64,000 nt of DNA from Octopus vulgaris (lineage: Eukaryota). Position numbers and translations under genes: made by a program. Shown one piece after another: positions 1-56,058 of the stretch (within the stretch, counting starts at the first letter, position 1; each line of letters begins with the position of its first letter). Under the pieces are notes generated by a model. It worked only from the letters and a program-made list of their open reading frames with translations. It did no database searches and was not told the DNA's origin. The stretch spans positions 41,912,001 to 41,976,000 of the forward strand of contig OX597818.1 in NCBI GenBank assembly GCA_951406725.2. The letters run 5' to 3'.

Positions 1-339
1 ACACCAGTGTCTCAGTTTTGTCATGACTTCCACGGCTGGCTGCCTTTCTTATACCAACCACTTTGGAGAGTGTATTAGATGCCTTTTTTGTGGCACTGTC
101 AATTGTAAGACCACCATGTAACTTGCAAGACTCACGCATATATAAATGTATGCATACATATATACGCACACATACAGACACAAACATATGCACACACACA
201 CACACACACACACATTTATATATATATATATATACCGGAGTAATCACATAAAATGTGAAACAAGGTGGAAAAAAGAGTACTCAAATACCAGGGGTAGAGT
301 AATATGCTTTATTTAAAAGTAGCAGAAATACAACAAAAC

Positions 340-378
340 CTGTTACTCGGAGTTTCACGTTACCGTTCGTCGGACAGT
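340..378 (-). ncRNA. Minimal type I hammerhead ribozyme motif (U4C variant)
   Basis: CUGU CCGACGA ACG-GUAA-CGU GAAA CUC-C-GAG UA ACAG: helix I CUGU/ACAG, helix II capped by GNRA, palindromic helix III, GUA cleavage triplet. Confidence 0.75.
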
Positions 379-424
379 TTTAGTTAAAAAAAAAAGATTA
401 AAAAAAATTTTTTTTTAACAAAAA

Positions 425-462
425 CTGTCTGACAAATGGGAACGTGAAACTCCGAGTAACAG
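425..462 (+). ncRNA. Minimal hammerhead motif, decayed copy
   Basis: CUGU CUGACAA AUG-GGAA-CGU GAAA CUC-C-GAG UA ACAG; G8 is lost, consistent with CpG decay. Confidence 0.6.
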
Positions 463-1027
463 GTTTTGTTGAATTTCTGCTGCTTTTAAATGAAGTATAT
501 ATATATATATATAGATATGCCACAGAACCTTCCCAAAACAAGGCACCAATATCTAAGCATTATCTGAGCTTAATAAGATCCTCTGGGAAGAAAAACAACC
601 AATATCAATGTAAGTAATCCCCACAAACCATGAATCCACAAACACTTTCCCACTTTACTAGAATGAAGAACAACTCAGAATAATGAGTCTAAGATATAAA
701 AATACACAAGCAAGCATAACAAATATGTATTTCCATCATCAGCAGCCAAATGGATATTACAATGGTTTTGACACCTGGGCAGTCTGGCAGTGTCAGCAGC
801 ATTAAAAGCATACATTTGTCTTGAAATCTTTAGTAATCAGCAGGAGTGAAAAATTATCTGAAGAAAAGGTCTGTTTTTACTTTGATTCCCCATAAAGAAT
901 AGTCAATTTTGGTTGAAATTGTTAAACTGTTGAGATTTTAGTGATAATTAGTAAGGTCCTTTTAAAATATTATTGTTGATTAAACACATCCAAAAACACT
1001 CAAACTCAAATACATCTACACTCGTAA

Positions 1028-1066
<39 letters not shown>

Positions 1067-1927
1067 CACATGTTAACAAGAGTTGATAGAAATGTTTCTT
1101 CATTGATACGATCTCTTTTTTTTTTATCAATCAGTCCTGGGATGATTCTAGCAGCGTATAAGTTTTTCTACGAGAAGGGATTGCTAGCCTGTCCCTCAAC
1201 CCCACTCTATTTTGGGAGAAAGAAACTGTGAGTGGTCCCCTACAATTCTTCTCACAGCACAACACAGCTTATTCAGAGAGTGAACGAGTGAGTGAGAAAA
1301 AGAGAAAGAGAGTGAATGAGAGACATTGATTAGCTTCACTGCTTGACTTGCATTTTATTAATCAATCCTGGAAGGCTGAAAATCAAAATTTACATAAGTG
1401 GGATTGAATCTAAGAGTTCAGAGAGCTGGAGCAAATACCAATAGGCACCCTATGTATTTACAATATATGTATATGCTTTGAGTGGTTTAGCTTTTACACA
1501 CTTCTGTTTCTCAATGCCAACCAATGTTTCTTTCATCAGTTCTTCAAGTACAGTAATGTCTATATTTTGCTAATGAGGTCAGAATAATACCATAAAATGT
1601 TTGGTGTTGTCTCCCATACTTGACAAAATAATTAAAATAATATTAGTCATTAACTCATTGTTTTTCTTCCCTCACTGAATAGTTATTTCTAGGTGACTTT
1701 TTAATACTCACCACATTAACTTGGAACTTTTCATATTTTCTAGCATCCTTGTAAAAGTTTCAAATTTAGATAATTTGTAACCTCCTGAGAGAAGATAGTT
1801 GAGATTTAATGCAGAGTAACAGAAAAAAAAGTACATAAAATTGGTTAAAACAAAGTGTATATTGTACTCTATATTTGAGAAAATTTGTCAGTTATAAATT
1901 ATATCTGTCTGTCTGTCTGTCTGTATG

Positions 1928-1960
<33 letters not shown>

Positions 1961-2004
1961 GCGTATGTGCATCAGAGAGACAGACAGACAGATAGGTTGA
2001 GAAT

Positions 2005-2035
<31 letters not shown>

Positions 2036-2824
2036 GGGAAAAAGGAAATGACAGAGTAGAGGGAAATAGCAGAGAAAGTACATATATGTATGTATATATA
2101 TTTATAGAGAGAGAGAGTGTGTGTTTGTGTGTGTGTGTTGGTATTTGTTAAAAAATAAGTTGACTAAATGCCTAGAGAAGCTATTTTCAAAATTTTTCTT
2201 GAAAGGCTAACATCATAATTGGTTACTGTTGGTGTTCATCTTACAAATGATTATATTAATGAAGATTGCCTTTGAAAATTTAATATTGGAGATGTGTATT
2301 GTGTAGCCTATGGCACACTTTGTGTGAGCTGCAACACTATGGCTTAGTAACAGTTTAGTTGAAAGCCACTACGCAACATACTATCTCTCATAAATCAGAA
2401 TTTATTATTTACAAGCCTACAGCCAATGTAGCTTGAGGCTTCTCTGGGACAAAACTGAGACCAGTCTTTTCTTCAATTAGTCTCAATTAGACAAATGAGG
2501 TTGCCTGAAAATGTGTGTAGTTCAGGGAACTAAAAGTAGTCTTGTGACACATAATCTATTCATATATTCAAGTATAAAACAAAAAAAGGTTATATTGGAA
2601 ATGATGAATGAAATATTAATTTCAAGACTCACAGGCTACAATTGGAACTGCTTCACATATACCATTGACCATTTTGTTATCATATTTCTGTCGAAATATA
2701 ATGCTTTTGTTTCAGTTAATTCTAAAAGTAATGAAAAATTTATTAAAATAATTTTGTCATTATTAAGCTGGTATTTGGAACATAAATGAACATGAAATTC
2801 TGAAGGAAGGTTTTAATTTGGATT

Positions 2825-3677
2825 GGTCATGTACTACGGATGGATGAGGAGAGATGTGTGAAGAAGTGCCACTCCCAAACAGTTGAAGGAATCCGGAGTA
2901 GAGGTAGACCCAGGAAGACATGGGATGAGGTGGTCAAGCATGACCTTCAAACGTTGGGCCTCACAGAGGCAATGATGAAAAACTGAGACCTCTGGAGATA
3001 TGCTGTGACTATGAAGACCCGACAAATAACATGAGTCCATGGCTGTTTCCTGCACCAGTTTCACATCGCAGCCCCAGCCCATCCATCATCATCATCATCA
3101 TTGTTCGACCGTGGTCGAGACAATGGAATTTACCATGCTACGCCAGACTTCACGGTCCATCATGGCATTACAGAGGTCCTGTTGCTGGATGCCTGTATCC
3201 TTGGAGATTACATCAGGGTAGGAGAGTGTGCGCCCTCTGGTATTGTGAGTAGATGGCTTCCAGAGGAGAAGAGTAGAAATTACCTCTTTTTCAGCTCTAC
3301 AACAATGTCCAGCAAACTGGACTCTCTTACCTTTCACAGCCCATCCAAAGTACCTTGAATTGCAGAACAGCCTGCTGTGCTTACCTTGGATTGTATGGTG
3401 ACCTGCTCTGTGTAAGGAGACCTATTGAGTCAAGTACATCATCAACATCAAAATAAAAATCAAAGGGAAATTGTAGTTGTGATACCTGTGCCGGTGGCAC
3501 GTAAAAAGCACCCACTACACTCACGGAGTGGTTGGCGTTAGGAAGGGCATCCAGCTGTAGAAACACTGCTAGATCAAACTGGAGCCTGATGCAGCCTCCT
3601 GGCTTCCCATTCCCCGGTTGAACCGTCCAACCTATGCTAGCATGGAAAACGGATGTTAGACGATGATAATGATGATA
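2825..3677 (+). mobile_element. RTE-clade LINE 3' end with 3' UTR and (ATG)n tail
   Basis: Encodes GHVLRMDEERCVKKC...RGRPRKTWDEVVKHDL; tail shared with many copies in the window. Confidence 0.9.
3086..3336 (-). mobile_element. RTE-like LINE 3' fragment with 11-bp TSD
   Basis: RVQFAGHCCR...RGR..SYPDVI...MMDREVWRSMV C-terminus and (ATG)n tail; TSD CAGCCCATCCA at 3075-3085 and 3337-3347. Confidence 0.88.
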
Positions 3678-6600
3678 AACTTTGTAGCATAAATCAGGGA
3701 TGGTTTCAGTTAGTATGGAAATGGTTAATGCCCTCTAAAATATAGGCATGAATATCACAGGTTCCTATCATGTTCCGTAAATTACAAACTACAATGCTCA
3801 GCTAACAAACATCACTCCTCTTTATCTTCCCTATCAAATCATTGCTGCATGTCTTTACCCTTGCACCAGACACAGTTCTATAAACCTTAAACATGTACAA
3901 TTTTTCTTCGTTTTTTGTTAAGGTCTATGAGTATATTTGCAAATGTGCACATTTATATCTGTTATATACAACAGAAGCAGTATTAGATTAAAATGGTCAA
4001 TTGTGCATCATACTTAATGTTAGTACATTGTGATAGGCATGTTTACTGTGGTATTCATTCTGAGCTAATATCTCATATGAATATGCTGTGTTTAAAAACA
4101 CAAAATGTATCAGAGGCAGATGAAAATCAAGTTGGTAGTAACTGGTGAGAATTCTAGATGATTTTTCTGCCTCATTGGGCTTTGTGAAGAGCATGTAATC
4201 ACAGCCAAGCATTTAACATCTGCACCAGCTACTAAGATGTTTTATGTCTGCCTCCAATATATTTTGGGTTTTATAAAACACAGCACATCCATTTGAGATA
4301 TCTCAGAGGAAATGTAGTAAATTTGCCAATGACTTTTAGTATGACATACACAGGACACATTTAGATATTTTCACCGTGGGACTTGGTTTAGCAAACAGTA
4401 TAGAACTTAACACAGATGATTTAATAGGTAGCTACATGAATCTTGATTTCTTACTCAGTTTGCATCCTTTTAAGCAGTTTCCACGCATTAGGAATTTGTC
4501 ACTCAAGTATAAGTCTTTTTTTTTTCCATACTGCTAAGTTACGGGGGTGTAAACAAACCAACACCAGTTGTCAAATGGTAGTGGTGGAGGGAGGGCAAAT
4601 ACAAAAATGTACACGTGCACACACACATTGTGTGTATATGTAGATATATATGTGTGTGTATGTATGTATATATGTGTGTGTGTGTTTATGTATTTATATG
4701 TGTGTGTGTATTTTATTTATATAATATATTTATATTTATACATATAAATTTATATACAATGGGCTTCCATACAGTTTCCATCTAGCAAATTCTCTCATAA
4801 GGTATATTGGTCAGTCCTGGGTTATAGAAGAAGACATGTGACCAAAGTGCTGCACAGTGAGATTGAACACAAAACCATGTGGTTACAAAGTGAGCTCCTT
4901 AACCACACAGACATGCCTGTGCCTGTACACAACCATACCTGTGTCTATAGAAAATATAAAACAAAAATTTAAGGAAAATAGTTTGTTAGATGAAATTAGA
5001 ATGCTGACAAACAGTCTTTTTTTGATTGATGGTTTTTCAAAATATTGTCCAAGTAATTTACATTTATGTATCTTTCATATGTCATAGTAATCACCAATGT
5101 GACCATGGCTAAGTTATTTTCAAATATAATTTGTTGTGCAGGTTGTGGTAATTGTTTTGTAAACCAAATTCATACTACTAGAATTTCCATTGTACAAATC
5201 TTCCCATCCTATTTGTTGTACATGTTTCTATGTTTACATTTTCTTAAGACTGCATATCTTAGAATGACATTATAATTGTAGCTGTGGTACAAGTTTAGAT
5301 ATGTTGAGACTATGTTTTAAACTATATTCTTTAGTGGTGATATTCTTTTTAGCTCATTGAATATGTAGGTTAGTTTTTTTATTCCCATTAAAACATAGCT
5401 TTATTTGTTGCATTAATAAAAACAGCAACATGTTACCATTAAAAAAGGCATTTTGAATCGGTTATTGATGTTGCCAGATATTTTATTGGGCTTCACAGTT
5501 ATGGATCAAATAGCATAACATAAACAGCAGTTACAATTTGTATGCTTTTTTGAATTGGAGGTGCAAGGTGGCAATTTTCAAAATCTATCTCCAGAGAATT
5601 GGGTATCTATTGTGCTGGTGATTGTATAACTGGCAAGTAAACAAAAGATTGTAGTTTTAGGAATAACTATCCCATAAATTTGGTATAATTTGTCAAATAG
5701 CCAATGATAACAGACGGAATAAAAGGAATAGTATGTTAGTATGAAAAAATGATGCTGTGTTAGTTACATTACCAACAGCAGCAATAGAAACAACCAAAAA
5801 ATTGAGAGAAGGAAAAAAGATCATTTACACAAGCGTTAGATTATGAACAAAAATAGTCTTGAGTAAAGTAGTGTTAGTGTGAAAAAGCTGTTTAGAAAAA
5901 GGCTGAGAATGATTACTTATCGTTAAAGATTTCAACTTCCCAGTTTGTGGAAAGATTTTCAAGGAGATATGGCCACAATTGGCAGCTTAACTTGGGTCTT
6001 GCTATGTTTTCTTGTTATTTATCCCAAAATCAGTTTTGACCGAGTAGACCTATGATTAAAGGCATTTCAGCCATGACCATCCCACCAGTTTGTTCAATGT
6101 GTTGATCCTTTTTAGGATGAAAGGGTGTGATGTGAGGGACATTTGACTATGATTTCTAGCAGATTGTTCTATCACACACAGACTCCTTCTCAAGCTGTTC
6201 TTGTGTACAAATAGTTTTCATTGTAGAAAAGAAATGAAAAGGAAGATAAAAGCATAAATACTGTTGAGAAATTCAGTTCTCTCTTTCTATAATTTAGAGA
6301 GAAATCTGGTGATTTTTGATGTGGATTATGGTGTCCAGGTTATTCAAGGTATTGTCTGGAAAAAAACCCCCCAGAGAACCCAGATTTCTTTAACGAAACA
6401 GAAACATTTTATGGAGCATGTATGATACCATTGTGTTAGAGGGGGGTTTTGGATGGGTTGTAAAATCCTCTTAAATGTGTTCAAATAATTCCACTATTAT
6501 AAGTTACAGACTGTATGTAGGTAGAGTTCATAAATATTCCTTCCTCTCTCCCTTCTTATCATTGACTGTCACTTCATGTTCTTTCACACTGCCATTACTG

Positions 6601-9600
6601 TCTTTAGTTGTAAGTGAAACTTTCCTGATGTGCTTTACATAAATGTATTTGTATTCACACTGAGCATGTCTCTCCAGGTCAAGGCACTACTTCTCTGCAT
6701 TGAGAAGTCACAGCTCCAGTACCACAAACATGTGATTAGAATGTTGCAGGAAAGAATTGCAAGATGAATTCTTCAAGCCAATCCAACTGACTGGAGACCT
6801 AAGTGTTGACCTAGAAGAAGATAGTTGAATAATATCCATTGCCCTAGTTAGATATTATCCATGATGTAATTTGAAGGAGATTTAGTTTCTATTTTCTGTA
6901 AGTTGAACAATCACATAGAGCTTAGGTGGGGAATCTTTTTAATACCTGGAGAGAATTGCCAGTGCATCAAAACCAGTAGGAATGTACTTGTACTGAGAAA
7001 AATAATGTATTGTCAATTTTACAAATTAATAGGTATGCAAATTATATTAAATTACTGTTTTGCTCTGGAGGTTTAAGTACTTTTAGTATATGGTTTTTGA
7101 GATTTCATCGTTAATTAGTTTGAATGTGAGCAAAATTATGCCCATAGATAAGTAACTCACTGTTGATATAAAGACTTATTTGATGGCTGGAGAGTTGAGA
7201 AAAGTTTGTCATCAAATGGTTGTGGGATTATTTATCTGTTGAAATGTGATGGTATTCACACTTCAGTGCTATGGCTTCTTTATCAGTATCACAACAATGC
7301 TAAGGATAGCTATGGTAAATACTCTGCTCTTTACTACTACAACAGCAACTACCATTACGGCTGCATGAAAGTATTCTATAAATGTATAAGAGCTTAAATA
7401 TTTCATAAAATTATCTGATCCTTTGAATAATATTTTTAATTAACTAACATGCGGCTAAAATATCAGTGGAACATTATTTAATCATAGACAATTCACGGGA
7501 GATTACAAGTAGTAGAAATAATGTTGGTAATATACTTAACCTGCTCTTCAACTCGGCATCTCATACTAACAGGAAGCTCACAACCATTTCCAAACAGAAA
7601 TCAATAAATTGCTACTCTTACTTCATAATATTTCTCAGTCATTCATTATTGATTCGAAAATGTTTTCTTTATTTTTTCTTCCATCTATAAGGAATAAATT
7701 CAAATTTTCCTTTCTGGTTTACCAAAAATCATTATCTCAGTTGCTCTAAGTTTTATATAATACCTTTATATTTAACTAGTTATCTTTGTTTTTTTTTTTT
7801 TTTTTTTTTTTATCTACGTGGGGAAACAGTTATATTATTTATCTGTAATAGATAGAGTGTAACTGGATTCTTCCATTGTTCATGTATTCATTGTAATTTA
7901 TCTAATTACTTTCCACAGGATTTAATTGGCAAATCTACTCTTCACTTTCATTATCATAATGTTACCAATCAACCGAGATCAACTAAAGGAAAAAACAAAC
8001 AAAGAAACAAGAACAAAGACAAAAAAACAACTGTAATTTAAATGAAAAGAATATCAATTTTGAACTTTTCTATGGAATATTATTAATGCCTTTTGTTGGA
8101 AAATTATAAAGGCTCCATAGTTTCAATAGAATTTGGATACAAGTAGCTCCCAGATAACTAATTCTAATAATTAGAAATTATTATGTTCAATCATTTCTCC
8201 TATCAATAATGTATGCCAGTATTCAAGTTGATTTTATTTTTTGATTGTCATTTTTATTTTATACAATTTAAATAAGCATTAATTTAAATTGCTGAGTGCA
8301 CACACATACATATGCATATATGTGTGCACAAATGTGTGTGTGTGTGTGTGCACGTGCAGTATGTATATACCAATGTATACAAATGTTTGTTTTAAGTATT
8401 GTTGTGAACAAACACAGCCAAACGTTAATGGAAGGATCACCCAATATATTCCAGTAGAGAATTACATCTTGCTTTTAAATGGAAAACATTAACAGAGGCA
8501 TTGAGGTTTCAACTCACTTGCCTTTGTCAGACTGTAATTTTATTCTTTTTTGTTTGCCAAAACTTTATTGATATTTTCTATTCTTCTTGTAGATGGGGGC
8601 TTAGTGGTTGCAAAGTAGGTGTGGTGTAACAGTGAACATACATGTGTATGTAAATGTGTGTGTGTGTGTGTGTCTGTATGCACATGCCTTTTCCATGCTG
8701 GCATGTGTTGAACAAGTTACTGCCTTCATAGACAGGTCGAGGAACCACATCTCACCTATGATTTCTATAACTAGATACATCTTCTAACAGCACCCACTTT
8801 ACAGAATGTACCGGAGATGTTTTACTCAGACACAAGCAATAGTAAGGTTGCCTAGTACTCTGCAGGACAAAAGGGTCCCTACTATTTTATGTTGACTCTG
8901 TTCAGGGCAATATGGCCGAGAAAGTGAGAAGAGAAGGCAACTGCAGAAGATGAACTAGGATGTCTGAGACAGAGAATCAAAAATATGAAGTGAGGAAATA
9001 CAATGATTGAATGACAGTGTAGAAGAGGAGGAGTAAGGGAGCGACAGTGCAAAGAAGAGTAATGGCTGAGTGTAACAAGAGACAGTAATGGCAGAGAGTA
9101 TTCACTGGTCATAGAGAGTGTGAGTGAGGGATAGTTGTAGGAGTGATCAGTATAGCAAAAGGGGCTGGTTGCTACCTAGGTCAGATACCAGGAAACCCCA
9201 AAATGGCAGAAATTCAAAAGACAGTGCTCATGGGAAATGCCCATATCCTATGCAAAATACTTTCTATGTAATCTCAAGTTTAAAAACAAACACTTAATTT
9301 TCTTATGGTTTCTTAAACTGTCTCTAGAACAACACTATGTACAAAACCAAATATATGGCACCCTAGGGATAGCACCAACATGAACTTCCAACTTGTCTCT
9401 TGAGGTCTCTGGGTGAGACTTGGAGCCAACTTGTACAAATGTAAAGCAAAAGTAAAACATAAAATTATAATAATAATAATAATCCTCTCTACTAAAGATA
9501 CAAGGCTTGAAATTTTGGTGGAAGGGACTAGACGATTATATCAACCCCAGTGTTTCACTGGTATTTAATTCATCAACCCCGAAAGGATGAAAGGCAAAGT

Positions 9601-9734
9601 CGACCTTGGCAGAATTTGAACTCAAAACGTAAAGACAGACGAAATATTGATAAGCATTTCATCCAGCACGCTAATGATTCTGCCAGCTCACTGCCTTAAT
9701 AACAACAACAATAACAACAACAATAATAAAAAAC

Positions 9735-14700: not shown

Positions 14701-14914
14701 TATATATATAATCTAGGCCATTTTCAACCCTAGATTCTGGTCAAAGAACTTGATTAATTCATTAATCTATTAATTTATTCTAGGCTTTCTTCTGCTTCTC
14801 CTTGCACCTATAATGTTTAATCATTTTGAATCCTGTATGTACAGTTGTTTGTTCTTGAATCAAAGTCTCACATTTCATATTCTGAAGCAATTCCATTTCT
14901 TATTCTTAATGTTG

Positions 14915-15060
14915 CAGCATTGAAGATGTTTGTAAGCCATTTAAGAACACACAAAAAACCATTAGATTCACTTCAACATGTAAATTTAATTTGTGTCAAA
15001 ATATTTTTGTCACTTTGAAACCATGAACTGTTCACTGACAAAACTTTGTGCTGCATCTCT
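14915..15060 (-). mobile_element. Penelope-like repeat with G3:C8 hammerhead variant (decayed)
   Basis: Homologous to 33690-33890 and 55867-56058; keeps UUUGUCA-GUGAACA-G. Confidence 0.6.
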
Positions 15061-15574: not shown

Positions 15575-15735
15575 ATTCAAATAAACGAATAAGAACGGAT
15601 ACCATAATGACGTGCATAAGAAATGTATTAGCTTGATGCTTATTGAAAGGAGAGAATTTGATGTTTTGAGCATAGCTCTTCGTCGGAAAGATGAAAGGGA
15701 AAAGTTCAAAGAAGGAAAAGAAATCACAATCAACA
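15575..15735 (-). mobile_element. Penelope-like repeat with decayed minimal hammerhead
   Basis: UUU CCGACGA A GAGC-UAU-GCUC (g>a)AAA C(g>a)UC AAA at 15689-15657; next to TA/CA repeats. Confidence 0.55.
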
Positions 15736-27603: not shown

Positions 27604-27643
<40 letters not shown>

Positions 27644-27646
<3 letters not shown>

Positions 27647-29540
27647 CAAAATAAGCAACAGGATATCAAGAAGTGATGCAGTACAACCGTTTCAAGCAGC
27701 TCCATTTAATTGGACAATGCAATCATTACATCAATTTAAATGTTGGGCTATCCTCAGCTGCACAAATAAATAGATAGTATTTTAATCAGTTGGACACATT
27801 AATATAATTATACTCAAATACTCTAATAGAGCAAGAAGATAGAAGAAATCCATGTTGTCGTTATGGTAGCTAAGAATACACTACACTTCTAAGAACTACA
27901 TGACGTTTGTTGGGGGTCTTAGCTTGTTAAGGATTGTGGTTCATTTTTAACTTATTTGTCTTTTTATGTTTAGAATGGAGGACAGGAGTGAGTTGACAGC
28001 TCATAGCTAAGTATGGTCATAAATATTGTCAAGATTTTAAGAGTAGTATAAAGTAACTGTCTATAAAGGAGGTTGGGTAGGTGAAGACACCGAATCAAGA
28101 TATTAATTACCAGTTAAGACACTAATAAAACCTATGATGTTAATACAGAGGAAATTTTATCATGGGGTACAATGGGTGATTGTTTGAGTATAATTATATT
28201 AACCCTTTCGTTACCAAACCGCCCGAAACCGCCCAAAAAAAATTTTGGTTAATGTGACCAAGCCGCCCCAAACTGCCCGAATTTACCTATTCATATTTAA
28301 ATGAGAATATCAGAGTAAATCTCTTTAGTACATTCGTGAAAACACGTATTATACTTCGTAAACAGTTCAACTACAGTTTTGTACAAAAATCGAAGTGTAA
28401 TTTTAATTCCGTGAATTATGGGAGATTTTTTTCTGAAATTTGTTCCTATTGTGTTTTCAAAATTTGTAATTCTGACAAAAAAATGGATACGAATTTCATT
28501 ATATCAAGCAGCGAGTCAGAATTCAAAGGATTTTCTACTGAAGATCATAAATCTAACTCTATGACTGAAAAAAAAAAGCATGTGGTATTTGATAATGAAT
28601 CTGATGTTTCATTTTCCGAAAGTGAAAACAGTGAATTCGAGATCTCCGACAGCGATAAAGAAAATGAATTGGTACCTGAATGGAGTGAAAATTTAAAAAC
28701 TGTTTCTTTCGGTGATTTTTCTGAAGAAACTGGACCAAGCCACAGACTTTCCCAGAAGAGTAAAGGCTTAAATTATTTCTTTTTACTTTTTCGAATGAGC
28801 CTATTTGAAATCATTACGGCGGAAACGAACCGTTACGCTAAACGTAAACAAAGCGAAAGAAACGATAGTTTGTGGTTTCCCACAACCTTAAATGAAATTA
28901 AGGCCTATTTTGCCATAAATATTATTATGGGTATCAGAAAGTTACCCAGAATAACAAATTCTATCGTAAAATTTTGTTGTATACCCAATTGAATATTAGC
29001 TAATAACCCATTTTCTATAGCGATGTTTGAACAAAATTTTAATAATTTTATATTTTGTTGAATTTACCTGTATCTACCTGCAATTAGAGTCACTTTGTGA
29101 CAAAAATTATAGTATAGAATTGGTTGAGAACATTTCATTAAATTATCTTCCAAAATTCATGTTAATATATTGATAAATAAAAAAGTTATTGTTGTTTAAT
29201 GAAACCAGACTAAATTTATGATTACGTTAGAAATTAATTGAAACACATAAGGGGTGTATTTTGGTCAGAAATATAGTAACGAAAGGGTTAAAGTTTCCAA
29301 CTGATTAAAATTCTATTTATTTATTTGTGCTACTGAGGATAGCCCTACATTTAAATTGATGTAATGATTCCATTGTTCAGTTAAATGGAGCTGCTTGAAA
29401 CAGTCGTACTACATCAAGTCTTGATATCCTGTTGCTTATTTTGATTTTATTCACCTTACTTTGAGTTGTCCAGATAATACCGCACTGACTTGGTACTTCA
29501 ACTTAAGTACCTAATTCAAATGAATCTCAATTATTTCTTT
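27644..29540. mobile_element. Penelope-like element with ~135-bp inverted terminal repeats in (TA)n
   Basis: 27644-27776 is the inverted copy of 29312-29447; each arm has CUGAGGA...GAAAC..GUA; related fragment at 36214-36265. Confidence 0.65.
28203..29287 (+). mobile_element. Internally deleted piggyBac transposon
   Basis: TTAA TSDs at 28199-28202 and 29288-29291; 12-bp TIR CCCTTTCGTTAC; ORF 28336-28992 is a truncated transposase N-terminus (acidic tract, YFFLLF...ETNRYA...W.PTT..EIKAYFAI.IIMGI). Confidence 0.95.
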
Positions 29541-29803: not shown

Positions 29804-30730
29804 CACACACACACATTGGTGGGTATGTCATACTGATGTATATTAATTCTCCAAAAGAATGTCATATTACTACTGAATATGCAGACTCATTCCATTATTA
29901 AAAAGTCATATTCAATATTTTTATTATGCTCTTAGAGTCAACCCATTAAACTTAGTTTAACTTATTTATTTCTTGACAATGTTAGATGCATGTTAATAGG
30001 CATTTACAGGCATTTATATGACTATATGTACATGTATTTGTGAATAAATTAAAATATAAAGTAACTGTCTATAAAGGAGGCTGGGTAGGGGAAGACCCTG
30101 AATCAAGATATTAATTACCAGTTAAAGAGGCAGGATGCTAATAAAACCTATGATGTTAATACATCATCTCTAAACATGTTTTAAAATGTGTGTGGGATAA
30201 AATGCACTCAAAAGCATATAAGTTCATATTAACATCATTTTTTATTGAATATCTTCTGAAGGTTAGAACTTAAGGAAATTCTTAAATAATGGTTTGAAGT
30301 ACTCTTTGTAACAAGTATATATACATAAATATAAGTATTAACATATGTATGCATACATGTATCTATTGATACATGGACTTACATATACAGATATGTGCAT
30401 ACATATACATATTCATTGTATGTGTGTGTGTATACACGTATTATCTGAAAAGTATAGTATTAAATATAAATCATGGCTGATGGTTTCACATAAAGAATAC
30501 AATGGAGTGTTAGGTAACAATCCGGTTATATAACTTTATGCTCATCAGAGTTAGCAGATACATAACACTCTATTATATTCTTTATGCAAAACAGATTGGT
30601 AAGATCAGACTTGATGGATATTTAATACTATACTTTCCGGATAGCACACCCACTCTACAGAAACATATACAAGTGCATATTTTCCCTGAATTATGGTCTT
30701 TCAAATGACTCCCACACGTGTGTGTGTATG

Positions 30731-30773
<43 letters not shown>

Positions 30774-30774
30774 T

Positions 30775-30935
30775 AATTAAAAAAACAGAGGAATAAACAA
30801 AAACGGGAAAAAAAAACGACACGATGTGATACATGGTAAGTATTAAGATGCTCAGGGAAGGAAAGAAAGGGTGTTTTATGCTTCAAGCAAAGCTCTTCTT
30901 CAGAAACAGGAGAGAGAAGAAATTGCAAGTAAAAA
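30775..30935 (-). mobile_element. Penelope-like repeat with decayed minimal hammerhead
   Basis: UGUUU CUGAAGA A GAGC-UUU-GCUU GAAG CA UA AAACA at 30908-30872; abuts (TA)n. Confidence 0.6.
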
Positions 30936-31000
30936 GGGACACAGACACAGACATACACACATATGCACACATATATATGTGTGTGTGTGTGAGTATATAT

Positions 31001-31559: not shown

Positions 31560-32099
31560 AATGCACTGACATTTACACACACACACACACAAACTCACAT
31601 ACACACCCAAACATGCATTTAGTTTAAGTACTGAGTCAAATCTATAGTTTGATTTAGAGGTGTTGGAGTTATATTGGGCCCTGTTGATGTATTATATGTA
31701 CTGAATAATTGATATAACATTTTGTGTTGTTCTCATAAAAGTACACAGCTTGGAAAATCAATATGACCAAACAGTTATCAAAGCAATTCCCTAACTTCAA
31801 AAATAGTTTTATATTTAATGAAAACCTGCAATAAAAAGCAACATATTAATTACATTAATTGATACGTACATATATTTGTGCATACTTTTAGTAATAATCA
31901 AAGATTGAAAAAATCCCAGTTAGTTTATTATGATACTATATTTAATAATGGTTATGTGCATACACATTATATTGTGTGCGTTTGTGTATGTGTGTATGGA
32001 AGTATATATATACACACACACACATATATATTATATATATGTACATATATATGTGTGTGTGTGTGTGTGTGTCTGTGCATATGTATATATATTTGCCAT

Positions 32100-32281
32100 T
32101 ATTGATCGCTAGCCATTAAACCTTTTTTATTTTCTCTCTCTACTTTTTTCTGTGTCCCTTTCTGTCGAAGCGCATAGGCTCAAAATGTAAAACAATTTCT
32201 CAATTCCCGAGTGTTAAACTAATACGTCTGTTGTTTACACACCTATCTTTGTCTTTTGTTTTGTCTTTTCCTGTAAATTGC

Positions 32282-32285
<4 letters not shown>
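32100..32285 (+). mobile_element. Penelope-like repeat; second copy at 35347-35530 on the minus strand
   Basis: Inferred consensus CUUU CUGUYGA A GAGC-GUAG-GCUC GAAA CG UA AAAG; both copies adjoin (TA)n. Confidence 0.5.
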
Positions 32286-33689: not shown

Positions 33690-33890
33690 AATTTTATTTG
33701 GCAAAATATTTTCGTTGCTTTGAGACCGCGACCTGTTCACTGACAGCACGGAATTTTGTCAGTGAATAGGTTGTGGTCTCAAAGCAATGAAAATATTTTG
33801 GCAAATTAAATTTAAATGTTGAAATGAATCTAACGGTTTTTGTGTGTTTCTTAAATGGCTTATAAACACTTTCCACGCTGCAATTGTTTA
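33690..33890. mobile_element. Fold-back Penelope-like repeat with two G3:C8-type hammerhead motifs
   Basis: Inverted arms 33690-33745 and 33757-33813; both flanks are (TA)n. Confidence 0.7.
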
Positions 33891-35328: not shown

Positions 35329-35564
35329 TATATATATATATATATAGTTGAAATTTATAGAAAAACAAAAGGTGAAGACAGGTGTATGAACAACATGCAA
35401 ATGTATTAGTTTGACACTCAGGAAAAATGGAAAAGTCTTTTATGTTTTGAACCTACACTCTTAAACAGAAAGAAATAAGAGAAAATAAACAGAGAGAGAA
35501 AGAAAAAAACTTGTAGATTTTATCGGTCCAACATATATATATCTATCTATCTATCATATATATG

Positions 35565-43780: not shown

Positions 43781-44935
43781 TCATCATCATCATCATCATC
43801 ATCATTTAACGTCCGCTTTCCATGCTAGCATGGGTTGGACGGTTCAACTGGGGTCTGGGGAGACCGAAGGCTGCACCAGGCCAGTCAGATCTGGCAGTGT
43901 TTCTACAGCTGGATGCCCTTCCTAACGCCAACCACTCCAAGAGTGTAGTGGGTGATTTTATGTGCCACCGACACAGGTGCCAGACGAGGCTGGCGAACAG
44001 CCACGCTCGGATGGTGTTTTTATGTGCCACCGACACAGGTGCCAGACGAAGCTGGCGAACGGCCACGCTCGGATGGTGTTTTTATGTGCCACCGACACAG
44101 GTGCCAGACGAGGCTGGCGAACGGCCATCTCGGATGGTGTTTTTATGTGCCACTGACACAGGTGCCAGACAAGGCTAGCAGACGACCACGCTCGGATGGT
44201 GTTTTTTTTGTACCACCGACACGGGAGCCAGATTAGGCTGGCGATCGGCCACGATTGGATGGTGATTGTTACGTGCCCACAGCATGGAGGCCAGTCGGTG
44301 CGGTACTGGCTACGGCCACGTTCGGATGGTTTTCTTGTGTGCCACCGGCACTGGTACCACAAAGATACAAATTCCATTGATGTTCATCTATTTTGATTTT
44401 GTTGATTTTCACTTGCCTCAACAGGTCTTCACAAGTGTCACAAGAAGGAAGGTATGCACAGGTGGACTGACTACGTCCCAGGTAGGGGCCACGGGTTATG
44501 GCCTGACTAGTCTTGCCGGGTCTTCTCACGCACAGCATACTTCCAAGGTCTCGGTCTCTAGTCATTTCCTTGGTGAGACCTAAAGTTCGTAGGTCGTGCT
44601 TCACCACTTCGTCCCAGGTTTTCCTGGGTCTACCTCTTCCACAGGTTCCCTCAACTGCTAGGGTGTAGCACTTTTGCACACAACTATCTTCAGCCATTCT
44701 CGTCATATGACCATACCAGCGCAGCCGTCTCTCTTGCACACCACAACTGACGCTTCTTAGGTTCAACTTTTCTCGCAAGGTACTTACACTCTGACGATTA
44801 TGAACACTGACATTACACATCCATCGGAGCATACTGGCTTCATTTCTTGCGAGCTTACGCATATCCTCAGCAGTCACGCCCATGTTTCACTACCATGTAG
44901 CATGGCTGTACGTACATATGCATCATAAAGTCTAC
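43781..44935 (-). mobile_element. 5'-truncated RTE LINE with tandem-repeat 3' UTR and (ATG)n tail
   Basis: ORF 44269-44883 has RRLRWYGH.TRM...GRGRPRKTWDEVV; tail at 43781-43805. Confidence 0.93.
43955..44350. repeat. ~62-bp GC-rich minisatellite, about 6.5 units
   Basis: Unit anchors (tgtgccac) at 43961, 44023, 44085, 44146, 44209, 44272 and 44338. Confidence 0.95.
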
Positions 44936-44939: not shown

Positions 44940-45130
44940 TTATGTTCATTAATTTAAACCTGGCTTTAATAATCGAGAACTGTTTTTATTTAATGTTATA
45001 TTGAAGTGGTTTTTGCATGCAACTTAATGAAAAATCTAATATAATTGTATTGTGGAATTTTGGTTTGAAGACTAATCAAATTGCAGGTAAGTACAGGTAA
45101 ATTCAGAAATATTAAGTTTTTAAAATTCTG
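44940..45130 (-). mobile_element. Degenerate piggyBac 3' region
   Basis: Aligns by eye to the reverse complement of ~29040-29220 (aattgcaggta..tacaggtaaattca). Confidence 0.6.
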
Positions 45131-46700: not shown

Positions 46701-47039
46701 TAAAACCAGAAAAAAACCTTGACAGAAAACAAATTATTTTAAGCATATAATTGATATCTACAACTTCAGAATTCACAGTCTAAGGAAACCAGTGAAACTC
46801 CGACTACACGCACACATGCACCTTATTTAATAACAGTTGGATTTAGATCCATGCGACTTAAGTTTCATAGGTTACTCAAAAGAACCTAATTCATCAGGCT
46901 CATAGAAACAAAATGAGGTAAGTCCAGCTGATGGTGAATGCAGATGACATGGTGTTATCAGTTTAGTAGCAACCTCAATTTCCATTCTGAATTTCTAGGA
47001 CCACATGCTAGGAGAGGATGTTGGTGGAAACATTCTTAT

Positions 47040-47450
47040 TTTTTTACTGCCCATAAGGGGCTACACACAGAGGGGACAAACAAGGACAAACAGATTAATT
47101 CGATAATATCGACCCCAGTTGGTAACTGGTACTTATTTAATCGACACCGAAAGGATGAAAGGTAAAGTCGACCCCGGCGGAATTTGAACTCAGAACGTAG
47201 CGGTAGACGAAATACCTATTTCTTTATTACCCACATGGGGCTAAACACAGAGGGGACAAGCAAGGACAGACAAACAGATTAATTCGATAATATCGACCCC
47301 AGTTGGTAACTGGCACTTATTTAATCAACCCCGAAAGGATGAAAGGTAAAGCTGACCTCGGCGGAATTTAAACTTAGAACGTAGCGGTAGACGAAATACC
47401 ACTAAGCATTTCGCTTGGCATGCAAACGATTCTGCCAGTTCGCTGCCTTT
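47040..47450 (-). mobile_element. tRNA-SINE family A, dimeric form
   Basis: Core gtcgactttgcctttcatcctttcggggtcgat..aagtaccag (resembles the Meta-SINE central domain). Intact monomer at 61281-61510(+); other copies at 9483-9697, 10548-10945, 11805-12003, 37020-37430, 39700-40310. Confidence 0.88.
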
Positions 47451-48158: not shown

Positions 48159-48192
<34 letters not shown>

Positions 48193-48399
48193 ACATACAT
48201 ATGTACGACAGGCTTCTTTCAGTTTCCATCTACCAAATCCACTCACAAGGCATTGGTCAGCCCAGGGCTATAGCAGAAGACACTTGCCCAAGATGCCACG
48301 CAGTGGGACTGAAACCGGAACCATGTGGTTGGTTAGCAAGCTACTTACCACACAGCCACTCATGATGATAAGAAATAGTTTGAAAAGAAAATGATAGGA

Positions 48400-49314: not shown

Positions 49315-49441
49315 TCAAGGAGAGAAATTCACAGTGTAAAGGCCAATCTTGTTGGGATCTTTGAACGCATAAGTGATACAATAATGAGAGAGCAGCTGCT
49401 GTAACAGTTCATGCTCATCTAGAAATTCCACTTTCTCGATC
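49315..49441 (-). CDS. LCMT1: LCMT1 terminal coding exon
   Basis: ttacag|G ATC... encodes (R)IEKVEFLDEHELLQQLLSHYCITYAFKDPNKIGLYTVNFSP*, the IE..EFLDE.ELL.QL..HYC motif; TGA at 49317-49315. Confidence 0.96.
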
Positions 49442-49504
49442 CTGTAATAAAAACAAAACAGAAAATAATATCATCAAAAAGGTATACAACCAGCCCCATA
49501 TATA

Positions 49505-50275
49505 CGAGGAATAGTAAAAAAGTATCTAACTTTTATTTTTACCTAATGCTGCATGGGCAAAAGGTAACATCAACCTTCCTGTGTATGCATGAAAATTTTC
49601 ATTTTGATAGTTTGCATCAGTTCCCGGCTGTTACACCTTGAGCACAGATATGTAGTTCACGCTTGTTGGATTTTTGATTTTCACCAAATGCGTTGAGCAG
49701 AGATATTGCATCAAGTTTGGTCAAAACCATCCAGAAGATTCAGCAAGCTTTTGGTGATGATACCATGGGAAAAAGTCAGATCAAGGAGTGGTGCGACTGC
49801 TTCAAACATGGTTGCACTCAAACAGGCCATCCACAAGCCAAAACAAGGAGCCAATTGAGAAGGTTCAGTGAATAGTCATGGAAAACCATCATGTGACAAT
49901 CCTGGAAAATTGCTCACAAAGTGGGAATATGCACAGGATCAGTGCATTCCATTTTAATGGAGGGTTTGTGCATGCAGAGAGTGTCAGCAAAATTCGACAC
50001 CAAGGTGCTAGATGAGCAGCAGAAGCAACTTTGTATGGACATTCCAGACTGTGAAAACCATCACCACTGAAGATAAGACATGGGTTTATGGTCTCTGCTC
50101 AATGTGTTTGGTTATCTTGAGTGGAAACGAAAATCTGATGAGTCTATGCTCCACATCTGTACTCTAAGCATTTTTTCATGCATGCACAGGTAGAGTGCTA
50201 TCATCTCTCACCCAAAGGATTTTTCCCAAGCAGCACTAGTTTTGACAGGAAAAAATAAAGCTGGAATGCATTTCA
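49505..50275 (+). mobile_element. Internally deleted mariner in the last LCMT1 intron
   Basis: TA-CGAGG... terminus; EQRYCIKF, IQQAFGDD.MGKSQIKEW..CFKHG and V.AKF remnants. Confidence 0.8.
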
Positions 50276-51059
50276 TATATAAAAAAGATCTTTGTCATTT
50301 TATTAGTAATCAGCTTGAATTCTGTGAATGAAAAAAAAAAAACTTTCAAAAATCTTCAGGAAAAACATACATACTCCAAAGAAAGTTGTCAGTTCTGTTT
50401 ATTTTTGGTACTAAATCTACTGTCATTTCTTTTAGAAATATCCAGTGGATGTATGTTAGGGTCTACAACAAGAGATACCAATATAACTTTATTTCTTTGA
50501 AGACAATCTAAAGATCTATACTAGAAATATTTACAATACTAAGAAATAGCTGGATTTAGTGACATTTTCTGTGGATATAGGGTTAGAATTTGACCAAATG
50601 ACGTGTGCATATTTGACAATTGAACGTGAAATGAACTTTTTAACCATTTAGCTATAGCCACAGACATACAAAGATGCATACACATGCATCTTTATATAGT
50701 GGATATATAAGCTCATATATCCACTCACATGCATATTTATACATACATTCATACATATATGAACACACACACACACATTCACAAGTACATATAGTTTTTA
50801 TATAATTGCATCCACACAAAGAATGCAGCATATATGTTGGTACACAAGAATATAAAAATGTGCTCAAATGTTATATTCCTTATGCACATATAGACACAAA
50901 GAATATTGTGTGTGTGTGTATACAGACACACACATGTATACTCACACACATATATGTATGCATACACACACAGCCATATAGGTTGTTAGGCTAAATATAT
51001 CAATTTGCATAAAAGGAAAAGAAAACATAAAATCCCATTCAAAAACAAAAGTATCTTAA

Positions 51060-51280
51060 CCCCTTCATTGCCAATCCGGCTGAAACCGGCTCTGACTCTG
51101 TAATATAATTGTCTTATTTACATAAGTTTTGAATAAAAATCTTCCACCAAACCTTAGTCACAATTTATGTTCCTAACACTAGCTGAATGACAACGAAGTT
51201 ATTTTACTAAATTCTTTGTTATATTTAAAATAATTGAAAGAAACATTGAGCATCTCAAGAGAAATACAGTAACGAAAGGG
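51060..51280 (+). mobile_element. piggyBac MITE
   Basis: TTAA at 51056-51059 and 51281-51284; ends match the 28.2-kb element (gtaacgaaaggg); degenerate copy at 40903-41117. Confidence 0.9.
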
Positions 51281-51289
51281 TTAAAAAAA

Positions 51290-52385
51290 TCAAAAAATAT
51301 TAACCAGATTATAGCTGTGAGATAACAGTTTACTCCAAGTAGCCACCCTCAGCTTCCACCACAACCTCAAGACAGCTCCAAAACCTAGTGGATGCGTTTG
51401 TGACTGTGTTTGTTGGAAGATCTTCAAATAGCTCATTGATCTTGGCCATAAGATTAGTCTTGGTGTTGCAGGTAGAGTGGTTGGTGTCTTTCTCAACTGC
51501 ACCCTACACATAGTAATCCATGGGATTACAATTGGGAAAATTAGGAGGCCAGGAAAGGGGCTGGTGAAGTTGTAAAAATTCTCCAACATTTACTTCTGAC
51601 ATTGGTCAGTTAAAGTTGAGACAGTGTCATGTGACAACTTGCTGGGCTGCCTGCTGGAGCTTAGCAGCAGGTATTTAAAGGGAAAAAATTTGACAAGACA
51701 GTCAGTCACCCACTGACACTTGTTGACGCTACATCGAAGAGGCCAGGGAAGAGAAGAATGAAGAAGAAAGAAGACATGTGCCCAACACCAGAGCTGAAGA
51801 CACCTCCGAAGGGGGGGACTCCGCCATGTCAAAACGGTAGAGGAGTAGGGGCTGAAACGGGACGTGGTTCCTCCTGATGATGCCTTGAGCAAACTGGATC
51901 CTATAAAGGAGATGTTGTGGTAGCAGACCACGAAACACAGTTGAAATTTCCAGAGGAATAGCAAGGAAGTGAATCCTGCTGCTACATACAGAGCTTCTTG
52001 CAGCAACGCTCTCCAGCAGTTTCTCATAGCAGTCAGAATTGAGCCTAAGGCCCTGTTCAAAGGTGTAGAATTCTGGCATGCAGATGTAGTTAGAATGCCT
52101 GCAGTGGTCCTTCCTGCTGGCCACAGCTTCATAGTCTGTTACGGCTGTTCATGTCACAACCATTACAATGTTCACAAAGCATTGCGCATCAGTTATGATG
52201 GTCAGCATTTTAATACTCATTGCGAATCATCATGTTACAGATATCTCTCTTCCAATATTCAGATGGCTTCCTGTCCCTGTCAGCTAACTTTTTCTCAATT
52301 ACAACTTTATCTTTATACTGACTAACACCTCTTACTTTTCACCAACACACCAAGCTGTTCCTGAAAAAAGGAGACTCGAAATTCA
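51290..52385 (-). mobile_element. Decayed Tc1/mariner (maT/DD37D-like) element interrupted at 51601-51945
   Basis: FEQGLRLNSDCY, QQDS and WPPNFPNCNPMDYYV.GAVE motifs across frameshifts; coding remnant resumes on both sides of the insert. Confidence 0.75.
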
Positions 52386-52679
52386 TCAAATTTAGCCTGA
52401 ACACCTTGTAAACACATGTGTATATATGTATGGACATATATAAGTATGTGCGCATATATGGATGTTGTTTACTAGATGATACCCCTACACGAGTATATCC
52501 AGAAATTTATACCTATGAATACATCTAGACATACACAATGTATAATAGCAGTTGCATGTACCTATATTGCTCTATATGTACATAAGTACATGTGAACATA
52601 GATACATGCTTAAATACACACACACACACAGGCACATAAGGACGTACAAACATAAACATGTGAATGTAAGCAAAAATTA

Positions 52680-52919
52680 TAGGGCATGTTACATAACAAC
52701 AATTGAAAGAGAGGGGCTTTCTCCGTCCGGGTTGCGGATCCGTGGAATAAGCTGCCAGACGAGATGGTGAAGATGCCAACGACCGCTCGGTTCAAAGTCT
52801 CCCTTGACCTCAAGTGGCCTGAACTCTTTACATGAACACCACCCTGTACATAACTCCATGTCCCCCTACATGGCCTTGCTTTTTGCTTTTTGAGCCAAAA
52901 AATTAACTAACTAACTAAC
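52680..52919 (+). mobile_element. CR1-group LINE 3' end with (CTAA)n tail
   Basis: RGAFSVRVADPWNKLPDEMVKMPTTARFKVSLD motif. Confidence 0.85.
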
Positions 52920-53109
52920 AATGTATAAGAAGATGAAATATATGTAAATACATAATAAGGAGAGTGGAAAATTCAGTATGGATCTAGTAAGAGTTACCAT
53001 CTGTGCAAATTGTTCAGTGAGGGTGGGCACAGGTATAAATAGATTATATAAATTTGGTTTAAAAGATGTGTACTGACAGTTTGGTGAAAGGTCTATAGTA
53101 AACTTGAAG

Positions 53110-53449
53110 ATGCTGAGACCCCCTTCGGTCATGACTGACCATGGGATTGCACCTAGAAAGTTACCCTCCCAAGCACAAGTCCGGGCAAGGTTGTTTATGG
53201 AAGACCAGCAGTTTCCCATGCATACCGGCCTCCCCTCTCCATGCCACCAGTGTTATCTAAGGGAAAGGCAACGGCCGATACAGCTTGGCACCTGTGACGT
53301 CGCAACTCATTTCTACAGCTGAGTGAACTGGAGCAACATGAAATAAAGTGTCTTGCTCAAGAACACAACATGCAGCCCGGTCTGGGATTCGAACTCACAA
53401 CCTCACGATCGTAAGCTCGACGCTCTAACCACTGAGCCATGCGCCTTCA
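53110..53449 (-). mobile_element. tRNA-derived SINE family C
   Basis: GGCGCATGGCTCAGTGGTTAGAGC...GTTCGAATCCC head followed by gtgttcttgagcaagacac; degenerate copy at 56860-57105(+). Confidence 0.9.
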
Positions 53450-54599
53450 AGAAGATATCTGCAAAAATATGTGTATCACGTCTATAATATATATTTGAAG
53501 CTGAGTGAAAGAGAGCATTAAAAGGTGGTGAATTAAAAGACAAGAAGTAAAACAGGGTGAAATACAATAAATTAAAAAATAAAAAGAACTAGTGAAAATA
53601 AACGAACAAGGAAGATTCATAAGTGCAAAAAGATGTGTTGTGAAATCTTACAAGGGTACGCAATATTATTCAATGAGCAACATAAAGGTAAGTAGTATAA
53701 ATTTCTTTTGATGAGGATACGAAAAGACCAATTCTAATTTTGTAGATGTAATTGTTGCATCAGGATGTTCTATTCCTGTATTTCTTCTATAGATGGAATA
53801 ACATTCAAAGCTAATGATATATGCAGATTTGGATATAGGCAGATTTGATAACTGACCAGTACCAGTTGATACTGTAATTATGAAAACTATTGTCCTTGAA
53901 ATTCCAGAAGTACTTGGATAGTGTTGTTCTTTTTTTTTTTTGTCTTCATACTTGAATAAAGATTTATGCTGATTATACTTGGGTTGAAAGTATTCTGCAT
54001 AAGGCCTAATAAACTTCTTAGACTACCAATGATTGAGAGCTTAGCACAGTATATAACACTCTTTTGAAGATGTTTACTCTTTGAAGGACTGGAATTGCTG
54101 GTAGAGGTGAAATTTATGTGAGTACATTGACTCTAACTAAAGAAGAGGTGAAAATATCAGTACAACTTGAGACTCACTTATCAAAAATTTTATGAAACTT
54201 ATGGCTAAAAGGAAAATGTTTAGGACAGTAAAGGCAATGTCAGAGGATTCAAAATAAATGGTAGATTATAACATAAAACCATTTTTTTCTAGTATTATTA
54301 GAATTAGAAGTGCTCTGTCTGGGTATCTACTGAATTTTATTTGTGAAGACACTCCTGCTTAAAGCCTCATTATAAAATTCTGCAGTGCAATGCTTGTAAC
54401 AGGATGAGAGGTTCCTGCACTGGATGGGTGCAGCTTGCATCCTTTACATTAAATATTAATCAAAGAAAGAGTCAAAGAGTCAAGATTTTCCGTTAACTTC
54501 AACAGTATAAATATTTATTTCTCGATTCGCAATATGAACATTTCCTTCCTCTGGGCGAATCTTCAGCCTTGTAGTGATACCATCTTGGAAATCTCAAGC

Positions 54600-55410
54600 A
54601 CGCATGCAATAGATTCAGAGAGCCTACCAACAAAATTAACTCTAGCTTTCATATCTTGATGCAAAGCCCTGATCATGTTTACAAATTTTTCTGGGCAACC
54701 TATTTCCCTTAGAATTAGTCACAGAGCATTTCGATTAACAATATTGAATGCTTTGCTCAAATCAACAAAGCAATGGTATAGTGCAAGATTCTGTTCAGTG
54801 CACTTTTCTCGTAACTGTCTGAGAGTAAAGATACAATCAGCTGTGCCCCTGGAGGAACGAAAACCACACTGAAACTCAGTTCTCCAACAGTGACAAATTA
54901 ATACATTTAAGAGTTCAAACATTTTGTCACCCCCGTATTTCAAGACTTCTGTGTGGATACCATCAGACCTTGGAGACTTATTGCTATTCAGCTTATTCAC
55001 AGCTAAATAAATGTCATTTAGAGTTGGTTCAAATGCCATCTCTTCTATAACTGGAAAGTGTTCAATTTTTTCTCTTGTCCTCATGTAAACGGATGATGGT
55101 CTATTTAAAAGTGCAGAAAAATGTTCTACCCAATGCTTATGAATAAAAGAAAATGACCATTTGTCAGTCAAAAGAAAATGACCATTTGCTGTTGTCACTA
55201 GAGCTACTGAAGAAGATTTTGGGCCATATACCTCCTGAACATAAGAGTACAAACCCTTGGCATCATTTCTATAAGCTGCTTCTTGTGCCACTTTTGTTCT
55301 ATCATTCCACCTTTCCTGTTTAATTTTCCTTACAGCAGTCTGCACTTTTCCTTTCAGCTTTCTGTAAGCTTCGTTTGAGTGGGGGTTCAAGGACTGAGAA
55401 AGAAGTATAT
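54600..55410 (-). mobile_element. RTE (BovB-like) ORF fragment with internal deletion
   Basis: W.EHFS.LLN, KSP..DGI..EVLK, QCGFR..RGT.D.IF.LRQL.EKC.EQ and FVDL.KAF motifs; the K.KG..C.NYRGI block is missing. Confidence 0.92.
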
Positions 55411-55626
55411 TGCCTACATACATACACATACACACGCACACACACATATATATATATACATATATACATATACATATACATGCATATACATATATATATA
55501 TATATATATACATATATACATATATATATACATATATACATATATATACATATATACATATACATATATACATATACATATATACATTTATATATACATA
55601 TATATATATATACATTTATATATACA

Positions 55627-55667
<41 letters not shown>

Positions 55668-55866
55668 ACACATATAAATATACACATATAAATATATATA
55701 TATATATATATATAGATATATATACATCAATATATATATATATGTACATACACACACACACACATATGTATGTATATATATATATATCTATATATCTATA
55801 TATATATATTACGGAGATGTACTTGCATAGCAAGTGACCTGATCTGAGATCGTGTGCTGGAACAAT

Positions 55867-56054
55867 CTGTTCACTGAGCTGTTCACTGACAAAATTCCAT
55901 GCTGCACAGAGATGCAGCACAGGATTTTGTCAGTGAACAGGTCGTGGTCTCAAAGCGACGAAAATATCTTGACAAATTAAATTTAAATGTTGAAGTGAAT
56001 CTAACAAATTTTTCTGTGTTTCTTAAATGGCTTATAAACACCTTCCACACTGCA

Positions 56055-56058
<4 letters not shown>
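55867..56058 (+). mobile_element. Penelope-like repeat with the best-paired G3:C8 hammerhead variant and a short fold-back arm
   Basis: UUUGUCA GUGAACA G GUCGU-GGUCUCAAA-GCGAC GAAA AUAUC U UGACAAA at 55926-55976; inverted arm at 55879-55907. Confidence 0.7.

Follow-up and report, generated by a model that had tools for sequence, protein, structure and literature searches.

Does a dense cluster of hammerhead-like ribozyme motifs beside (TA)n microsatellites reflect a radiation of one kind of retroelement, and do such motifs still cut RNA? The question is raised by a 64,000-nucleotide stretch of the Octopus vulgaris genome (GCA_951406725.2, contig OX597818.1; G000:C5:41912001-41976000; hereafter the window), in a host genome of 2.8 Gb with 34% GC that is rich in TA repeats. 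Our analysis indicated that the 12 hammerhead-like motifs of the window are very probably the 3' ends of 5'-truncated Penelope-like elements (PLEs) of at least four families, here called A to D, each carrying a minimal type I hammerhead motif and inserted in (TA)n.

Hammerhead motifs and their insertion sites

All 12 motifs proposed in a first-pass annotation were recovered at their places with family profiles built on other genomic copies, and these profiles gave no match of at least 12 bits in 20 locally shuffled windows. The weakest matches were those at 15.67 kb (13.8 bits) and 30.9 kb (13.1 bits). Such matches show family homology; catalysis is a separate matter. Runs of (TA)n of at least six units adjoin seven of the nine loci, with the exceptions at 15.0 and 15.67 kb, and fold-backs occur at four loci (0.2–0.5, 27.6–29.5, 33.7, and 55.8 kb), in agreement with the annotation on both points. 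Direct reading showed that every family core base is kept in four of the 12 motifs and that helix I is also kept only in those at 373(-) and 27757(-). Most copies in the window are decayed, dead through later mutation.

A TA zone lies at the 3' ends of 27 of 30 family A, 21 of 30 family C, and 20 of 30 family D copies, compared with 0.16–0.20 in their flanks, and at 12 of 20 family B ends, compared with 0.07, bearing out the enrichment beside (TA)n that had been proposed. An inverted arm is present in 18 of 30 copies of A, five of 30 of C, and eight of 30 of D. The 3' ends within TA runs fall at two fixed points, with or without a tail of 60–100 nt; the arms are arranged head-to-head, the tail usually sits on one arm, and the junctions vary between copies. 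Non-majority letters common to both arms number 34 in A and 27 in B, against 8.1 and 8.7 in mismatched pairs, and such sharing of rare letters is expected if the two arms derive from one source template. Hence 5' truncation, a head-to-head inverted copy, an optional 3' tail, and a microsatellite target bias, which are traits of endonuclease-positive (EN+) PLEs, were all found. Published work on PLEs already describes (TA)n targets, head-to-head arms, and tails on one side, together with the overall architecture (PMC3846280, PMC8557442, PMC4209133), which lowers the novelty of this part, and the tail has been described as marking two internal starts of the reverse transcriptase (RT; PMC11167929).

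Parent elements of the four families

All four families were traced upstream into PLE coding remnants, all of them broken, in support of the earlier view that at least four families belong to a (TA)n-targeted PLE radiation. In family A, RT and endonuclease (EN) sequences with a CxCX5C linker lie 1.3–1.5 kb upstream of the hammerhead at locus L224; EN was found in four of 30 loci, and open reading frame (ORF) remnants of RT/EN occur at L224, L503, and L504. The 3' untranslated region (3'UTR) of family D follows an EN with CxCX5C in 15 of 20 loci. The family D ORF remnants (L229-L247, L505) contain long Asn-rich inserts and may lack the RT core; Asn-rich inserts have been described for rotifer PLEs (PMC3846280). 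The CxCX5C linker (L224, L504, L505), the absence of CCHH, and the (TA)n targets are Hydra-clade traits, and by these motifs A and D fit the Hydra type as defined in PMC8557442.

The family C hammerhead lies downstream of RT and GIY-YIG remnants in eight of 20 loci (L186 and L189 among the eight), only eight of the 20 having been extended. For family B, loose ends of RNA disclosed an upstream word with 674 genomic matches, leading to an RT thumb and EN about 1 kb upstream of the hammerhead at L500, an EN at L502, and also L471. Homologs of the B RT piece align to an intact RT and GIY-YIG PLE protein of the same genome (E 8e-12, HMMER) and give weak RVT_1 or GIY-YIG matches below the Pfam cut-off; a homolog search for this piece among longer proteins gave no match, while the HMMER search did. 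Translations of B and C (L471, L500, L186) contain a CX2-5CxxC linker and a CCHH endonuclease, so these families are probably of the Neptune or Nematis type, two clades not told apart by these motifs. The long B 3'UTR lies on contig C16 in 20 of 30 returned loci (L471-L499).

An intact full-length copy of A to D with two pseudo-long terminal repeats (pLTRs) was not found among the fetched loci. A fifth, young Neptune-type PLE family (L091, L092, C16) has many intact 781-aa RT and GIY-YIG ORFs with a coiled-coil-like ORF upstream; its minimal hammerhead lies about 870 nt past the stop codon and has U3:A8, a core covariation also reported in PMC4209133. Some candidate features were rejected: the fixed 5' end of family A arose from query bias, as long copies exist; family B is not a stand-alone short element, as its long form and ORF were found; the upstream match at L268/L269 is a local duplication; and the ORFs next to L178 and L182, two copies of D, are those of other families. 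Separately, an A insertion stands in three tandem 400-bp copies at L211-L213 (C7), together with its TA and unique flanking sequence, which probably reflects local duplication.

Core variants across the genome

We searched the genome with the exact pattern of each family, leaving seven core places free, and counted core bases by hand in the first 100 matches listed. The patterns matched 521 (A), 1,280 (B), 10,253 (C), and 114 (D) sites, and the reversed-pattern controls none. Among the matches counted, C4 (U4C) occurred in 92 for family A; G3 in 98 and C8 in 95 for family B, with C3:G8 in none; U6 (A6U) in 95 for family C; and the canonical core in 75 for family D. The canonical CUGANGA core is thus that of D, from which A (U4C), B (G3:C8), and C (A6U) depart. 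The proposal that core variants are family-specific is supported for A, B, and C, in which the variants are the majority forms among the genomic copies counted; D is canonical. The proposed A6U group of four loci was likewise divided: those at 32.17 and 35.45 kb belong to family C, while the motif at 15.67 kb has a U4C core and that at 30.9 kb a canonical one.

Position 7 is the free position of hammerheads, and all four bases occur there in C and D with the other core bases fixed. Since this position is free and its neighbors are fixed, the cores look to have been selected in the source lineages. G3:C8, A6U, and U4C are a variant feature at the level of whole families, which explains why motifs with such cores are missed by Rfam and strict descriptors. 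Rfam gave no match at the gathering threshold on four near-modal copies, and the hammerhead was not named among 150 of its 265 matches listed for the window. Lunse et al. 2017 reportedly catalogued PLE hammerhead variants and may already list these three.

By both descriptor and folding, near-modal copies have the minimal type I layout, with three helices around the core and GAAA and a short helix III; when B or C is folded as a monomer, helix III does not form. Given the short helix III, cleavage is predicted to be slow and to occur only as dimers. Further hammerhead families, with additional U4C cores and long helix II, lie beside other PLE copies (L178, L077, L182, L168, L069, and L064), so the diversity is greater than the four families of the window.

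The start base of family B and the extra G

Among about 40 independent and unbiased family B copies, one has a long upstream sequence and the rest end within about 22 nt of helix I. Most B copies are 150–210 nt long; their sharp 5' edge falls on one base, and a TATA-like word lies about 30 nt ahead of it. Long B copies have a C ahead of the start word and a TATATAT word at -30. The letter ahead of the start was counted by pattern search, a query-biased earlier count being set aside. A C ahead of the start word was found in 248 matches, and the template continues in 84 of the first 100 listed. A non-template letter was found in 380 matches; among the first 100 listed it is G in 75, T in 13, and A in 12, compared with 21% expected for G (p 3e-31). 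Past the extra G, all 23 G loci show random letters, and none has upstream sequence in common with another. Armless B copies carry the G in 13 of 15 cases (two of the 15 from a query-ranked search), and in three of the four armless copies with a script-called target duplication the G lies outside it. Both window copies that keep the B start also carry it (Table 1).

In full-length L1 insertions an extra G has been read as a trace of the cap (PMC11702581), and PLE promoters sit in the pLTR (PMC2377424). Comparison of these junctions suggested that the extra G of family B is likely a copied mRNA cap, in which case the B templates would have been capped, sense, and uncut. We found no report of a cap-derived G in PLEs in the literature searched, one search giving only non-PLE papers.

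Family B RNA is present in three RNA-seq runs from a differently labelled organism, about 6% of each of which was read; no record describes the libraries as enriched for circles. On L262 and L287, A>G is among the commonest changes that the RNA reads show on family B. The fold-backs are possible editing substrates; in reads without matched DNA, differences between copies explain A>G equally.

A model for insertion and stub formation

These data can be combined in the following model. The element endonuclease would cut (TA)n, and the RT would copy the element RNA from sites within it. Both cut DNA ends may prime, at two internal start sites of the RNA, and the two cDNAs may then join head-to-head to give the fold-backs. 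The terminal repeat of family B likely contains an RNA polymerase II (Pol II) promoter from which the RNA starts, 23 nt ahead of the core. Priming near the front of this RNA would run off the cap and leave a stub of 150–210 nt with an extra G, so that the stub may represent a run-off copy taken at the capped end of a sense RNA still continuous across the cut site of the hammerhead. In its fullest form the proposal is tentative: B stubs would record a capped, sense, uncut Pol II template whose start lies 23 nt ahead of the hammerhead and on which both cut DNA ends prime internally, and G3:C8 and A6U (>10,000 exact copies) would be selected, active dimer ribozymes that widen the catalytic core.

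Weighing the interpretation

Several observations weigh against parts of this interpretation. With regard to the motifs, a family-blind strict descriptor gave five matches in the window, compared with a mean of 0.73 and a maximum of three in 30 shuffles, and only two of the five are motifs of the first-pass annotation, so that two of 12 motifs pass. A relaxed descriptor gave 39 matches against 28 ± 6 in eight shuffles; the contrast with shuffled sequence that the annotation had suggested was thus present but weak. Generic descriptor density was rejected as a test for its weak signal, and the family profiles were used instead. With regard to the elements, no intact ORF for A to D was found in the fetched loci, and the RT core of family D was not seen in 20 loci with 1.5-kb flanks and one 7-kb locus, where only the thumb end and EN appeared. 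About 30 of 70 fetched B matches are one insertion amplified within another repeat, and through this passive amplification the figure of 1,280 overstates the number of independent events. The amplified fold-back lies at L250, L257-L259, L267, L272-L275, and about 20 of L300-L339, all on C1, inside a larger carrier repeat.

With regard to the start site, one armless copy (L349) has the G inside the target duplication, the sequence ahead of the B start resembles a splice acceptor, and inspection of A, C, and D by eye revealed no sharply placed start marked by G. In addition, T replaces A at the start base in 199 + 25 = 224 B copies, a class not fully explained; junction microhomology may account for it, and a source subfamily with T at this position was rejected as too rare. 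With regard to cleavage, B ends number 28 at the cut site compared with 10 and 6 at neighboring bases, an excess confounded by microhomology: nine fall to helix I microhomology and six to internal changes, and 13 remain. Reads of the three RNA-seq runs lie on both strands of B without an accumulation of ends, a signal that such ordinary libraries would not be expected to show.

The most plausible alternative takes the variant cores (G3:C8, A6U, U4C) for inactive relics carried along by successful families, the motif being kept as an RNA structure or a protein-binding site. We regard it as possible, if somewhat doubtful; it concerns catalysis alone and is compatible with the PLE reading. Changes of A6 and U4 lower activity in vitro, an A6C variant having low activity, and U4C is natural in a viroid (PMC3088659). 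Hammerhead cleavage is dispensable for insertion in vitro and RNA ends were not seen at the site (PMC11167929), the cut-site excess shrinks as described above, and the B templates appear uncut. In contrast, G3:C8 is a double compensatory change that is partly active when engineered as C3G/G8C (PMC11167929), and the freedom of position 7 amid fixed core bases in C and D points the other way.

It is very unlikely that the copies are non-coding, retrozyme-like units that cleave, circularize, and depend on a PLE enzyme for copying in trans, an alternative that the first-pass annotation had kept and that was not supported here. The short length and sharp edge of most B copies and the presence of B RNA would suit it, and animal retrozymes have been proposed as derivatives of PLE terminal repeats (10.64898/2026.07.22.740005). 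However, the four families run on into coding remnants as the ends of coding elements, the window has no hammerhead-bearing tandem array, B starts lie ahead of the core rather than at the cut site, and no back-joint at the cut site occurs among the RNA joints listed.

A splice acceptor at the sharp B edge is also highly improbable. The sequence ahead of the start does read like one, with a branch-like word, a pyrimidine run, and AG, and in D. virilis helix I marks the end of a PLE intron (PMC4209133), so that stubs could stem from spliced RNA with a first exon ending in G-A-G; such an exon predicts constant upstream letters, whereas those after the single G are random, and the TATA-like word at -30 suits a start site. 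Finally, MITE-like DNA transposons (miniature inverted-repeat transposable elements) whose inverted repeats resemble hammerheads by chance would match the fold-back shape and high copy number, and are barely credible given a junction that differs in every copy, a tail on one arm only, many copies without a second arm, and the link to RT/EN.

Comparison with known systems

The hammerheads of truncated PLEs in octopus resemble the minimal motifs of metazoan PLE pLTRs reported by Cervera and de la Pena (2014, PMC4209133) in their type I form, short or palindromic helix III, and extra base between 9 and 10.1, and the elements likewise occur as thousands of dispersed truncated copies with opposite-strand pairs 100–700 bp apart. 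Unlike here, the accessible part of that study does not name G3:C8, A6U, or U4C as majority cores and contains no 5'-end analysis. Families A and D share CxCX5C, (TA)n targets, and a 3' hammerhead with the Hydra clade of C-terminal EN+ PLEs (Craig 2021, PMC8557442), and helices I and III of family A match the layout of Hydra-2_aMil and Hydra-2_aJap. The cores listed in the accessible part of that work are, in contrast, all canonical, the Hydra-1_Obim hammerhead differs from families A to D, and family D departs from the clade in its Asn-rich insert and in the RT core that was not seen. Of six family words compared with the accessible portion of its supplement, five were absent and the sixth matched another species.

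The inverted pLTR, one-sided tail, and palindromic junctions are like those of described head-to-head pLTRs (Arkhipova 2013, PMC3846280; Frangieh 2024, PMC11167929; Schostak 2008, PMC2377424), as are the TATA/Inr-like promoter words in the pLTR, the internal RT starts, and the use of an uncut RNA substrate in vitro. Arkhipova 2013 (PMC3846280) favored self-priming on an antisense template without excluding a sense one; the extra G would point to a capped sense template, on genomic evidence. Full-length L1 insertions (PMC11702581) likewise have a sharp 5' junction with one non-template G, but the octopus copies are short stubs that would arise by internal priming. Non-LTR (long terminal repeat) retrozymes (PMC7229834) share type I hammerheads in short dispersed animal repeats; they form 150–450-bp tandem arrays, their motifs are mostly canonical, and they have circular RNAs; such arrays are absent in the window. 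The available part of PMC13282606 does not mention ribozymes.

Features of the window

Table 1. Hammerhead-bearing insertions and associated features, in window coordinates
Feature	Position	Strand	Remarks
TA runs flanking family A fold-back	217-234 and 496-513		
Family A (putative Hydra-type PLE 3' end), long arm bearing a 66-nt tail	235..389	-	Minimal type I hammerhead with intact U4C core at 373
Family A short arm, no tail, head-to-head with long arm	413..495	+	Core at 429, decayed (G8A)
Family B stub	14912..15059	-	G3:C8 core at 15035, decayed (G12A); extra G at 15059 ahead of putative start; no long TA run adjoining
C-related hammerhead remnant	15657..15691	-	U4C core at 15686, G12A; weak profile match
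Family D (putative Hydra-type) long 3'UTR arm, no tail	27645..28198	-	Canonical core at 27757, long helix II; TA19 at 27607-27644
Insertion at D fold-back junction, 1.1 kb, inverted ends and TTAA duplication	28203..29287	.	Presumably piggyBac-like; sits exactly on junction
Family D short arm with tail	29292..29540	+	Canonical core at 29333; helix I broken
C-related remnant	30771..30940	-	Canonical core at 30903, A15.1G; adjoins TA16; outer boundary approximate
Family C (putative Neptune/Nematis-type PLE 3' end)	32091..32284	+	A6U core at 32162, G12A; 3' end in TA run at 32285
Family B fold-back flanked by TA runs	33690..33889	.	Cores at 33740(-), G3:C8, and 33762(+), G3:U8
Family C remnant	35347..35516	-	Decayed core at 35468; 3' end in TA10
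Family B inverted tail (putative second priming end) behind TA run	55809..55863	-	
Family B stub	55909..56056	+	Extra G at 55909; putative RNA start at 55910; G3:C8 core at 55933 (U16.1C, decayed); 3' end in TA12

The window also contains a separate family D 3'UTR piece without a hammerhead (30054-30163) and tandem units of 62 bp (43951-44277) and 184 bp (47037-47400) from other dispersed repeats.

Implications

These results bear on PLE replication and on the role of the hammerheads, for which both the antisense-template and the cleave-and-circularize models still lack proof in vivo. Should the extra G be a copied cap, family B stubs in their hundreds would fix the RNA start to one base, and uncut sense RNA would be shown to be a working template. 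The G3:C8 and A6U families may in turn serve as natural test cases for the tolerance of the hammerhead core.

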